A DNA stretch of 11,494 nucleotides, taken from IMG/VR virus record IMGVR_UViG_3300018488_000078. One strand, written 5' to 3'. Shown one piece after another: positions 7,207 through 9,874 of this stretch. Source of the stretch: a virus. Its lineage: Duplodnaviria; Heunggongvirae; Uroviricota; Caudoviricetes. The notes beneath the pieces were generated by a model. It had not been told where the DNA came from, did no database searches, and saw only the letters and a program-made list of their open reading frames with translations. The translations under genes and the position numbers were made by a program. How positions within the stretch are numbered: the stretch's first letter is position 1; each line of letters starts with the position of its first letter.

Positions 7207-8961
7207 TTATAAAAACGCGTCGCAATCGTCTGTTGTTATTGCGTTAGTCTGCGTAACTCCATTGACTTTCCGCGTAATATATTCATGCCCGTAAACTTTC
7301 GCCGCTGGCTTCATAGCTTTGCTGAACTCAGCCACGTTTAGCGGCTTGCTCCTGCCTGCGTATGCCATAAACGCCAGATAGACGCGGTAAAGGCTGTTTC
7401 TGGTCGTGTACTTCACGGAATCGCCACCGCCACCCATCATCAGGCCGCGCGCTTCCTCCAGAAAATTCAGAAACTGGCAAAACTCAATAACCGGATCCGT
7501 CTGTTGCTTTATTGCCAGAGCTTCATCACCGTCACGCTGTTCCAGTAGTAAAGCCCGTGCCTTTTCAGGGTCGGCAAAGTTCGCCAGCAAGCGGCGGATA
7601 ATGACAGGGATTTCAGCCGCGATCTTTTCCGGTAGCTCCCTGTCTTTTTCTGCCTCGCTTACGATGTTATCGAACCGGAATATCACCCGACGACGTGACA
7701 CGCCTCCGGCCCGTTCGGTGAATATCATCGGGTTATTATTGGTTGCCAGCACAACCGCCCTGATTACCGCCGTGAATCGCTTTTCATATTTCGGGTTAAT
7801 CTCCACGGGGTCGCCGCCCGTGATTTTCTTGATGCCCGTTCCTTCGCCTGTATATTTCGGCTGGTCTGCCAGGACAATAAGCCGACTCCCGACAACCTGC
7901 GCACGCCCACCAGCATCATCAAGCGATGTCATCTCAGCGCTTACCGTGTTCTGTTTCCCTGCCAGAAGGCTGGCTATGTGTGTGAATGTACTTTTACCGC
8001 TCCCGCCGTCTCCGGTGGCCTCAATAAACATCTGCCAGTCGTACCGGTTCGCCATAATCATGTACAGCGCGGCACATATACGCATCATCTTGCGCGGGTC
8101 TTTTCCGGCTGCGTGCTCAAGCCATTTATGAAAGTTTGGCGCGTTGTTGCGAATGTTCTCCCCTGGTGCTGGTGGCGTGTACTCAATGCCGTTGTGCGTG
8201 GTGATCCAGTTCTCCGGCGTGTGCGGGGAAAATTCCCCCGTTTTCAGGTCAAGCGCACCATTGGCGAACGGCAGCAAATCGCCGGACGGCTCGCCCATTG
8301 GTTCGGCAATAACTTTTAACGCTTCCACGGCGTTATTGATTACGCGCTTGCTGAAAGTGGCCCTGTGCTCTGAATAGATCGCCACCATTTCGCGGCTAAG
8401 TTCCATTGTGCTGACCGGACACCATACCCCGCCGCGCCATACGTGAACGATTTCACTTTCAGGATGTACGCAAACGCCATCAAAGCGATCGGCAAGCAAC
8501 TGCGCGCGCTCACTGTCCGCCATCTGCGAAAGTTGCGCCTTTTGCTTTACCGGAAGCTCAATGACCAGACCATCAGAAAGATTCTGGCGTTCACGGGCCA
8601 GATATTCGCGCCAGTTCTGCACCTCCTGGCCGTGCATACCCTCAGGATAAAAATTTGCATCCTGTACGCCTGCTGCCGCCAGCTTCTGACCAATCGCCTT
8701 TATCATTACAGGCGCAAGATATCCGGCCCTGTATATGCGTGCTGATTTTCGGCCTTCCGGCACAATTTGCAGATTATCCAGTTCGGATAGCTGCTGCTCC
8801 CCAAGCCACACAGGAGGCTCATTATCTCCGGCCATACGCGCATCATGTTCCTGCCATTGTTTCGCGTGTGCCCAGGCATCACTACCCGCAAAAATAATGA
8901 CTTCTGTTCCTTTGTGTTTTATGCCGCGTGACTGCTGTTTTACGTTCGGTGCCAGTTTCAT
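7207..8961 (-). CDS. Primase-helicase (P4 alpha / D5-like SF3 helicase type), candidate satellite Pri-Rep
   Basis: 584-codon frame, ATG 8959-8961 with GAGGT upstream. Walker A motif GDGGSGKST, Walker B-like RLIVLAD downstream, and a primase-like N-terminal region. Overall resemblance to P4-family and PICI replication proteins. Confidence 0.8.
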   Translation of the reverse strand: MKLAPNVKQQSRGIKHKGTEVIIFAGSDAWAHAKQWQEHDARMAGDNEPPVWLGEQQLSELDNLQIVPEGRKSARIYRAGYLAPVMIKAIGQKLAAAGVQDANFYPEGMHGQEVQNWREYLARERQNLSDGLVIELPVKQKAQLSQMADSERAQLLADRFDGVCVHPESEIVHVWRGGVWCPVSTMELSREMVAIYSEHRATFSKRVINNAVEALKVIAEPMGEPSGDLLPFANGALDLKTGEFSPHTPENWITTHNGIEYTPPAPGENIRNNAPNFHKWLEHAAGKDPRKMMRICAALYMIMANRYDWQMFIEATGDGGSGKSTFTHIASLLAGKQNTVSAEMTSLDDAGGRAQVVGSRLIVLADQPKYTGEGTGIKKITGGDPVEINPKYEKRFTAVIRAVVLATNNNPMIFTERAGGVSRRRVIFRFDNIVSEAEKDRELPEKIAAEIPVIIRRLLANFADPEKARALLLEQRDGDEALAIKQQTDPVIEFCQFLNFLEEARGLMMGGGGDSVKYTTRNSLYRVYLAFMAYAGRSKPLNVAEFSKAMKPAAKVYGHEYITRKVNGVTQTNAITTDDCDAFL

Positions 8962-9257
8962 TTTTTACCTCTGAATCCGTTAATCATGGTTTTCATTTTC
9001 TGGATATTTCCCCACGCTTTTTCCCTGCTGATGGGCTTACTGCGGGGTGCGGCATATACCAGGGAAAAATCACGCCGGAACTGATAAACAGGCATCACGC
9101 AGTCATAGCTATACCCCTCACGGCGGTAAGTGATGCACCGTTCTGCCACGCCTTTAATCGTTACCGTGCCGCCGTATTTATCGCGGTAAATATCGCCGTT
9201 CATAAATTCAGGTCGAGCGGGGCCGCTGGCAATAAAGCCAGAATTTTTCATTTCCAT
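8958..9257 (-). CDS. Hypothetical protein, 99 aa, stop overlaps the primase start (ATGA)
   Basis: ATG 9255-9257 with GAGGA upstream; operon context. Confidence 0.5.
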   Translation of the reverse strand: MEMKNSGFIASGPARPEFMNGDIYRDKYGGTVTIKGVAERCITYRREGYSYDCVMPVYQFRRDFSLVYAAPRSKPISREKAWGNIQKMKTMINGFRGKK

Positions 9258-9274
9258 ATTATTTATTCCTCGAC

Positions 9275-9496
9275 TTAACTCGACTTATTTGATAGCAGGG
9301 CACTATTTATTGCGTCATTGAGTTTTTCTGCTGATTCATCAATAAGTGACAACAGGCCATAAGCAATATTTGCATCTTCATTGTCATTTATGCAATCAAG
9401 CCACATATTTAATATTGCTTTTGCTGAATTATTTAAAGTTAATGAACTTTCTGCACATGCTAACAATTTAAAAAAGACTTCCCGTTCTGTATTCAT
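9275..9496 (-). CDS. Hypothetical protein, 73 aa, visibly AT-rich
   Basis: ATG 9494-9496 with GGTGGGGGA upstream, starting directly after the upstream stop (9497-9499). Confidence 0.45.
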   Translation of the reverse strand: MNTEREVFFKLLACAESSLTLNNSAKAILNMWLDCINDNEDANIAYGLLSLIDESAEKLNDAINSALLSNKSS

Positions 9497-9688
9497 TTAA
9501 TCCCCCACCAGCTTACTTTCTTCCTCAATCAAAAAACTAGCGACACTTCCCGAAAGACGCGCCAGTAGGCTCGCCAGTGCGGATATATCAGCATCTGTAA
9601 TTTTGTTCGGGTATACCTCAAGAAGGCGGCAAATAATTTCTGTCTGGTGCGCACGTTCAGCGGCTTCGTGTAATGTAATTTCCTGCAT
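9497..9688 (-). CDS. Hypothetical protein, 63 aa
   Basis: ATG 9686-9688; tightly packed with neighbours (3-nt gap to the upstream gene). Confidence 0.45.
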   Translation of the reverse strand: MQEITLHEAAERAHQTEIICRLLEVYPNKITDADISALASLLARLSGSVASFLIEEESKLVGD

Positions 9689-9691
9689 TAA

Positions 9692-9874
9692 TTACACCCC
9701 TTTTAATTCATGTACTGCTGCAATAATTACATGTGATAAACCTGCTTTACCGGAATTACTGATTACTGAATCAATCGCCGCTTGCATATTAACGGCCTTC
9801 ACGTTCTGCGTTATTCCGATGGTGTAGCCGCGTTTATTAACTGCACGGGCAAATACGCGGAAGGTTTTAAGCAT
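9692..9874 (-). CDS. Hypothetical protein, 60 aa, first gene of the leftward operon
   Basis: ATG 9872-9874 with AGGGAG 7 nt upstream; sits just after the 380-bp divergent intergenic region. Confidence 0.45.
   Translation of the reverse strand: MLKTFRVFARAVNKRGYTIGITQNVKAVNMQAAIDSVISNSGKAGLSHVIIAAVHELKGV

Follow-up and report, generated by a model that had tools for sequence, protein, structure and literature searches.

The window analysed here, 11,494 nt of DNA from a member of the Caudoviricetes (IMG/VR record IMGVR_UViG_3300018488_000078), carries five small genes directly upstream of a gene for a P4-family primase-helicase. We consider it likely that these five genes lead the early/replication operon of a phage-inducible chromosomal island (PICI) as a cluster whose ends are constant, whose accessory middle recombines and whose last gene, ORF99, encodes a transcription modulator. 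The element that contains them is an EcCICFT073-type Gram-negative PICI, helper-embedded (HE-PICI), situated within the portal gene of a lambdoid prophage. Read from 5′ to 3′ on the minus strand, the cluster and the replicase gene are as follows:

10064..9867, minus strand: Icd-like gene, 65 aa (NCBIfam NF033153, 63.7 bits, with the cut-off at 25)
9874..9692, minus strand: ORF60, 60 codons (ORF list and sequence)
9688..9497, minus strand: ORF63, 63 codons (ORF list and sequence)
9496..9275, minus strand: ORF73, 73 codons (ORF list and sequence)
9257..8958, minus strand: ORF99, 99 codons (ORF list and sequence)
8961..7207, minus strand: P4-family primase-helicase gene, 584 aa (Pfam D5_N and DUF5906; phrog_864, E = 6.7e-175; TIGR01613)

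The four ORFs had been described in an initial annotation of the window, and the ORF list and the sequence bear out the sizes, coordinates, tight spacing and individual Shine-Dalgarno sequences that it gave. ORF60 and ORF63 are separated by 3 nt, the TAA of ORF63 abuts the ATG of ORF73 with a gap of 0, 17 nt lie between ORF73 and ORF99, and the stop codon of ORF99 overlaps the primase start by 4 nt (ATGA). Purine-rich Shine-Dalgarno sequences are located 4–8 nt 5′ of each start (GGGAG, AGGGG, GGGGGA and GAGGA, followed by AGAGG for the primase). The block had also been placed between a regulatory region and the primase-helicase gene, and indeed a divergent regulatory region lies on one side and the P4-type primase-helicase of a satellite on the other. 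Only the count was one short: all four ORFs are real, and a fifth gene, the Icd-like one, had been missed. Each of the four matches a PHROG family (E = 1e-28 to 2.5e-34), and the ratios of nonsynonymous to synonymous substitutions (dN/dS) relative to the orthologues in Sp7 (CP-933C, O-island 51), a prophage-like element of E. coli O157:H7 Sakai, are 0.19 for ORF60, 0.30 for ORF63 and 0.27 for ORF99; for ORF73 against its Sp7 counterpart, ECs1580, the value is 0.61, which is unreliable since substitutions are saturated. The PHROG matches, the Pfam DUF4222 match of ORF99 and the dN/dS values well below 1 thus set these ORFs apart from chance frames, and the four are genuine, conserved genes. That they are instead chance frames or decayed remnants of a cryptic prophage seems to us a negligible prospect. 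Such a view can point to their shortness, to the lack of a Pfam domain in three of them and to the long-standing annotation of OI-51-type islands as degraded P4 remnants. It has to contend, however, with the PHROG E-values, with a Shine-Dalgarno sequence at every start, with frames that are intact and equally long in many genomes, with clear purifying selection on three of the four, with the presence of the exact ORF73 protein in 10,782 sample blocks and with experiments in which, according to PMC10111431, HE-PICIs of this type excise and replicate.

Lack of conservation in related elements had been named as one outcome that would refute the initial reading of the block, and the opposite was found. 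A blastn search of 5426 complete E. coli genomes with the whole block matched 1620 of them in part or in full, and single genomes have up to six matching places; the count takes in partial matches and in many genomes reflects just the DUF4222 or the Icd-like segment. Sp7 has the same five genes, in the same order, before its replicase gene, with ECs1577 to ECs1581 displaying 97, 70, 78, 33 and 72% identity to the Icd-like protein, ORF60, ORF63, ORF73 and ORF99, respectively. In annotated samples and contig look-ups, the Icd-like gene always comes first, its stop overlapping the next gene, and the DUF4222 gene (the counterpart of ORF99) comes last, its stop overlapping the replicase start by 4 nt in every locus examined. 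Between one and four small genes make up the middle, and they represent at least six unrelated families, as judged by alignment and BLAST clustering; the loci that define this pattern of constant ends and variable middle are those labelled L005–L008 and L017–L030. The type of replicase varies as well (D5_N/DUF5906 primase, DUF927 protein or RepA/AAA_25 helicase), and despite these differences the DUF4222 gene is 75–86% identical in DNA across elements. Moreover, an identical 77-aa protein of the ORF73 family (P0213), paired with a DUF4222 gene, precedes a RepA/AAA_25 helicase in some loci and a D5_N primase in others (L017–L024; L005–L007), which indicates that the replicase was swapped independently of the two genes upstream. 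As loci L005 and L008 demonstrate, the architecture does not depend on the middle genes. A scan of GTDB species representatives with narrow patterns derived from the DUF4222 alignment recovered one locus, in Shigella flexneri, a result that is silent on other genera. The GenBank phage collection yielded no DNA match for the block and no tblastn match for ORF73 or ORF99, so that at this sensitivity the block genes are not found in sequenced bona fide phages.

The recombining nature of the middle is best seen in ORF73, which the initial annotation had singled out as markedly AT-rich. Its GC content is 32.0% (23% at third codon positions), compared with 42–48% for ORF60, ORF63 and ORF99, 53% for the primase gene and 50.2% for the window; only 0.4% of all 222-nt segments are as low in GC, and the minimum of the entire window overlaps ORF73. 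The ORF60–ORF73 stretch as a whole also has a GC content under the genome average. ORF73 matches phrog_2196 (E = 1e-28). As a single query it retrieved six near-identical clusters from an indexed search, and an exhaustive phmmer search of 1.84 billion representatives returned its own cluster plus three long repetitive proteins, which we take as compositional matches. At the DNA level it is present in 130 complete genomes, always at no less than 97.7% identity and never at intermediate identity. Nevertheless, ORF73 can be aligned with the genes that occupy the same slot elsewhere, namely ECs1580 (33% identity) and the 75–77-aa proteins of L005–L007 (BLASTP E-values of 1e-5 to 6e-7), and a profile built from five slot-family sequences recovers 682 clusters, all of them annotated as Escherichia hypothetical proteins. 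On the basis of this alignment, ORF73 is a rare, highly divergent member of the family encoded just upstream of DUF4222 rather than an added gene. The same slot is filled by the ORF73 family in most related elements sampled, and the Sp7 member, ECs1580, is itself somewhat AT-rich (39% GC).

Locus L029 captures the exchange directly. It carries the same ORF60 allele as the window and near-identical starts of the DUF4222 and primase genes, but in place of ORF73 there is an 80-codon allele that is 57% identical to ECs1580 and cannot be aligned with the ORF73 allele. Identity between the DNA of L029 and that of the window is lost from the last third of ORF63 to the Shine-Dalgarno sequence of ORF99 and is then regained. 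Given this swap between intact flanks and the absence of DNA at intermediate identity, the ORF73 allele was exchanged as a unit by recombination with breakpoints at gene borders. The suggestion that the gene had been acquired separately therefore holds in the sense of a distinct allele swapped in, as L029 and the 130 genomes attest, and fails in the sense of an extra inserted gene, for the slot is one that a family occupies. In the contig look-ups, the exact ORF73 protein was found only in HE-PICIs, at portal and capsid-E sites, together with a D5_N primase. Its AlphaFold2 model is a two-helix hairpin (helices 3–35 and 39–72) with a predicted local distance difference test (pLDDT) score of 93.7; Foldseek found no significant fold match for it. 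A paralogous relationship between the ORF63 and ORF73 families was also considered and is unsupported (hmmsearch E of ~0.2; best BLASTP E-value of 0.023 in a set of 16 sequences).

The other two middle genes are just as clearly members of families. ORF60 matches phrog_3672 (E = 4.5e-28) and ORF63 matches phrog_1478 (E = 2.5e-34). The ORF60 allele of the window differs from that of a collinear relative, the locus L001 described below, and the differences between the two cluster at 9600–9999, which by sequence comparison makes ORF60 a separate mosaic patch. An identical ORF60 protein is encoded by HE-PICIs inserted at portal and terminase sites. Both ORF60 and ORF63 are absent from many related elements, though conserved and under purifying selection. 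Neither has a match in Pfam, NCBIfam, PADLOC or PDB. Along the operon, the isoelectric point (pI) of the products changes from 10.6 (ORF60) through 4.7 (ORF63) and 4.2 (ORF73) to 9.9 (ORF99), and the alternating charges may hint at pairs of basic and acidic proteins. Repeats within the small-ORF block, iterons included, amount to short matches in two copies, such as chance alone would produce.

The location of the four ORFs had been read as one where satellites and prophages keep early regulators and factors for host takeover or helper interference. We found nothing in support of the second part. The profile and structure searches proposed at that stage assigned families to all four proteins, ORF99 among them to that of RgdR, and brought up no relatives with interference or defence functions: Pfam has no match for ORF60, ORF63 or ORF73, PADLOC-DB contains no family matching any of the five small proteins at E ≤ 0.1, searches of PDB by sequence and by profile with four of the proteins gave nothing significant, and a literature search on ECs1577–1580 yielded comparative-genomics mentions only. 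It is nonetheless plausible, on general grounds, that the middle genes target the helper or the host, which would fit their small, acidic, variable and swapped character. Stated in full, ORF60, ORF63, ORF73 and perhaps ORF99 would be small inhibitors of helper or host proteins diversifying in an arms race, a reading that we judge unlikely while granting it several points. The ORFs sit early in the operon, the first gene of which belongs to a family named for inhibition of host cell division; ORF63 and ORF73 are small, acidic and helical; the array varies from one to four genes from at least six families, with alleles replaced as cassettes; dN/dS between ORF73 and ECs1580 is ~0.6; and EcCICFT073 interferes with lambda through genes other than those for its capsid and decoration proteins, as reported in PMC6092414. 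Yet ORF60 and ORF63 are evidently under purifying selection, the ORF73 ratio comes from saturated sites, and neither the searches, which covered characterized interference, anti-defence and defence proteins, nor the literature on the Sp7 orthologues lends it any likeness to draw on.

The early-regulator part of that reading fares better for ORF99, which belongs to a family with an experimentally regulatory member (PMC3378721). ORF99 matches Pfam PF13973 (DUF4222) over residues 16–67 with 80.8 bits (cut-off 27; E = 5.2e-23) and phrog_285 with E = 2e-29. It is identical to RgdR (ECs1581) at 71 of 99 residues (72%), without gaps (E = 4e-53), and on this similarity it is an RgdR-family protein. 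RgdR activates LEE1, in the enterocyte effacement locus (LEE), and type III secretion, acts as a repressor of motility and leads to more Congo-red binding (Flockhart et al. 2012, PMC3378721). Only ECs1581 and C1493 are known to bind DNA, activate LEE1 and repress motility, and an R20C substitution in the ED1a orthologue abolished both activation of type III secretion and DNA binding, while all variants affected motility (PMC3378721). All E. coli PICIs analysed by Fillol-Salom et al. 2018 (PMC6092414) encode RgdR, according to that study. Residues 20–22, RGD in RgdR, read NGD in ORF99, which thus lacks the RGD motif. Of the 116 closest full-length cluster representatives, 49 have N at position 20, 47 have P and 12 have R, with G21 and D22 nearly invariant. 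The occurrence of R20 in only 12 of 116 means that RGD marks a LEE-activating subset and not the family; activation of LEE is probably a by-product of this subset and not what the family does in the satellite. By analogy with RgdR, ORF99 probably lacks LEE activation, because N20 stands in place of R20, and may retain the effect on motility that is common to the family.

The AlphaFold2 model of ORF99, built from a 48-sequence alignment, has a mean pLDDT of 74. Residues 1–16 are of low confidence, residues 23–68 form a five-strand SH3/KOW-like barrel (pLDDT ~90) and residues 78–96 a basic helix. The closest PDB folds identified by Foldseek are KOW domains of Spt5 (E ~0.03), and matches among viral predicted structures are uncharacterized small proteins and DUF1653 proteins. 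The modeled fold fits a small nucleic-acid- or protein-binding protein, and nothing beyond that.

The position of ORF99 invites a different interpretation, in which ORF99, with or without ORF73, would be a replication accessory factor, the counterpart of P4 Cnr, kept at a fixed ratio to the replicase by translational coupling. The gene for Cnr (ORF106) lies directly upstream of that for the P4 alpha primase, and Cnr acts on the initiator to control copy number. The invariance of the 4-nt overlap with the replicase gene in every locus examined, the small gene at the equivalent place in P4, the basic character of ORF99 together with DNA binding by its family member RgdR, and the predicted iteron origin just downstream of the primase gene are all in keeping with such a role. 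We nevertheless regard it as distinctly unlikely. Closely related DUF4222 genes precede three unrelated replicases (D5_N primase, DUF927 and RepA/AAA_25), which makes a replicase-specific cofactor less likely than a transcription modulator; the identical P0213 protein is likewise found with two types of replicase, both observations speaking against a dedicated initiator partner, and the published phenotypes of RgdR concern host transcription and not replication. ORF99 has, moreover, no detectable similarity to P4 ORF106/DUF5375. Homology to Cnr was tried on its own and rejected, as BLASTP produced no alignment at E ≤ 100 and the position alone is analogous.

More doubtful still, in our estimate, is a possibility that treats the interval from the Icd-like gene to rgdR as a recombination-driven cassette array for small effector proteins, in which the hairpin family and RgdR would jointly counter H-NS-type silencing or set helper or host specificity. 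The phenotypes of RgdR (LEE1 up, motility down, Congo-red binding up and non-specific DNA binding) would, by analogy, resemble those of H-NS loss, and it is this likeness that suggests an anti-silencing role.

At the front of the operon, the Icd-like gene scores above the NF033153 cut-off, which places its product among the Icd-like proteins; RefSeq labels it 'host cell division inhibitor Icd-like protein', and inhibition of cell division is a predicted activity. With 97% identity to ECs1577 it is the most highly conserved gene of the cluster. It has a strong upstream AGGAG Shine-Dalgarno sequence and overlaps the start of ORF60 by 8 nt, an overlap that recurs in Sp7, L005 and L006 whichever gene comes next. 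It is also the first gene past a promoter-like site, on the other side of which lies a divergent gene:

10165..10193, minus strand: promoter-like site, TTGACG, 17 nt, TAACAT (consensus scan), 5′ of the Icd-like gene
10255..10560, plus strand: YlcI/YnfO-family gene, divergent (NCBIfam NF041551, 63.3 bits; phrog_6522, E = 1.5e-64)

Three copies of TGAAACACAC / GTGTGTTTCA at 10153–10236, which include a perfect 13-nt inverted repeat, bracket the promoter-like site (repeat families I1, I5 and D15); they look like operators and are best described as putative ones. The YlcI/YnfO-family gene bounds the regulatory region, and the same arrangement is repeated in L001 and L005–L008. A terminator-like hairpin with a T-run is present at 10029..10009 on the minus strand, ~35 nt into the Icd-like coding sequence, and is kept in Sp7. 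The leader RNA (9985–10158, minus strand), folded as a candidate attenuator, has an unremarkable z-score of −0.81, which neither adds support for an attenuator role nor excludes it. A 356-codon open frame (9867–10937, minus strand) crosses ylcI and the regulatory region, its last 65 codons being the Icd-like gene; the remainder is probably an artefact, an open frame antisense to ylcI.

Taken together, we favour a leader cluster that would be transcribed, probably as one unit, from the promoter region facing the divergent ylcI/ynfO gene; the data show that the genes are real, together with their synteny, family membership, folds and mosaicism, and co-transcription, coupling and each of the biochemical activities named here are what we infer. 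The overlaps and minimal gaps suggest that translation may be coupled all the way from the small genes into the replicase gene. Constant at the 5′ end is the Icd-like gene and, at the other, the DUF4222/RgdR-family gene that overlaps the replicase start; the one to four small genes between them have been reshuffled through recombination at their borders. ORF60 (basic), ORF63 (acidic) and ORF73 (an acidic hairpin) would act as accessory proteins, and its AT-richness identifies ORF73 as a distinct allele that a cassette replacement introduced into a conserved slot. By analogy with RgdR, ORF99 would most likely bind DNA with low specificity and modulate transcription upon induction of the satellite, being made together with the replicase. 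Several observations weigh against this account. The promoter-like site is a consensus match, with two such sites in the 2-kb region against 3.1 expected from shuffled sequence. The middle genes, dispensable as L008 and L005 show, may be unrelated to replication or regulation, and ORF60 and ORF63 have no remote homologue in the searches run. DNA binding by RgdR was non-specific in the published gel-shift assay (PMC3378721), and the mechanism of its effect on motility was still listed as unknown in a 2024 review (PMC10877973). Finally, the fold matches are generic and do not identify function (E ~0.03 for ORF99 and E ≥ 0.29 for ORF73).

The assignment of the host element rests on gene content, on insertion in a portal gene and on iterons 3′ of the initiator gene, each of which places it among Gram-negative, helper-embedded PICIs. 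A region of E. coli CFSAN029787 (L001) is collinear with the window at 97.8% identity; in it, an element of ~10.9 kb lies inside the portal gene of a lambdoid prophage, in the same orientation, splitting it into two pseudogene halves (L001 positions 4860–5642 and 16526–17359). The gene order in CFSAN029787 is int, an alpA-like helix-turn-helix (HTH) gene, Bro-N, the divergent ylcI/ynfO, the Icd-like gene, three hypothetical genes and DUF4222, followed by the primase gene, a hypothetical gene, ssb, a lambda-E-like capsid gene, a gpD-like decoration gene, a second AlpA-like HTH gene and a Nu1-like terS. Positions 1–2343 of the window are prophage DNA, with an S49 protease and a C-terminal portal fragment (1561–2343, same strand), and the remainder is the satellite. 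Its genes in the window comprise Bro, ylcI, icd, primase, single-stranded DNA-binding protein (SSB), capsid, decoration and terS, and int and alpA are present in the collinear L001 and L025. Like EcCICFT073, the satellite has no portal, protease or large terminase genes of its own. The small-ORF alleles of the window are also found at portal, capsid-E and terminase sites. HE-PICIs were published in 2023 (Tommasini, Mageeney and Williams), as a class that takes in three portal sites (PMC10111431). The late genes of the satellite and its iteron cluster are located as follows:

3443..3997: Nu1-like small terminase gene, satellite
4187..4570: second AlpA-like HTH gene, satellite
4582..4923: gpD-like decoration gene, satellite
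4933..5973: lambda-E-like major capsid gene, satellite
6967–7195: iteron cluster, GGTAGAGGG / CCCTCTACC in both orientations, with an AT-rich centre, directly 3′ of the primase gene

The iterons are present in at least eight copies (repeat families D1, D2, D5 and I1–I13), and the region 6967–7195 is the probable replication origin of the satellite, a prediction based on the match between its position and that of the Gram-negative PICI origin in PMC6092414. This region and ORF60 are the stretches most diverged from L001. In addition, identity to L001 collapses at 11200–11494, the 5′ part of Bro-N, where the final 300 nt contain 108 differences, as would fit the swapping of Bro domains that has been reported for PICIs. 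In the window the Bro ORF is listed at 129 aa and in relatives at 192 aa. An Rfam scan of the whole window at E ≤ 1 revealed no C4/isrK-type immunity RNA, the matches being two sub-threshold chance hits to miRNA families.

In terms of novelty, the finding is largely ordinary, as both the literature and RefSeq annotation already cover the element class, the RgdR family and the gene block, and specialists in satellites will find nothing unexpected here. What changes is the annotation of the window, which becomes that of a helper-embedded PICI with five small ORFs rather than four. The analysis also adds an R20N variant of the RgdR family that is unlikely to activate LEE, and it finds at least partial matches to the Icd-like and DUF4222 genes, in many elements to the whole block, in roughly 30% of complete E. 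coli genomes, some of which have several such places.

Compared with known systems, ORF99 has the same length as RgdR of Sakai Sp7 and occupies the same slot of a P4-like/PICI element, as the last of five small genes and overlapping the replicase start; the downstream replicase differs, being a 710-aa DUF927 protein in Sp7 and a 584-aa D5_N primase in the window. The core of ORF99 (residues 23–68) superposes on Spt5 KOW/SH3-like barrels (PDB 4zn1 and 4ytl) at ~2 Å over 52–59 residues, but sequence identity is only 13–15% and profile searches of PDB sequences were empty, so that the likeness is one of fold class and does not imply function. The left operon of P4 (kil/eta, cI, epsilon, orf151, cnr/orf106 and alpha) resembles the one described here in that small early genes lead into a P4-family primase-helicase and a gene of ~100 codons lies directly upstream of the primase, in a position like that of ORF99. 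P4, however, has neither an Icd-like nor a DUF4222 gene, whereas in the window no immunity RNA of the C4/isrK type was detected by the Rfam scan. For published PICIs, the genes between the Bro zone and the primase are classed in the available text of PMC6092414 and PMC10111431 as hypothetical or accessory, with RgdR alone singled out, and the cassette-like behaviour of this interval, as seen here, is without a description in those texts. In its overall plan, the element agrees with EcCICFT073-type PICIs and HE-PICIs throughout: int, alpA, a Bro zone, a replication zone with primase and SSB and a late zone are co-oriented, the late zone contains lambda-E-like capsid and gpD-like decoration genes of its own, iterons are located 3′ of the primase gene, and the element is inserted in, and co-oriented with, a lambdoid prophage's late gene, namely the portal gene.

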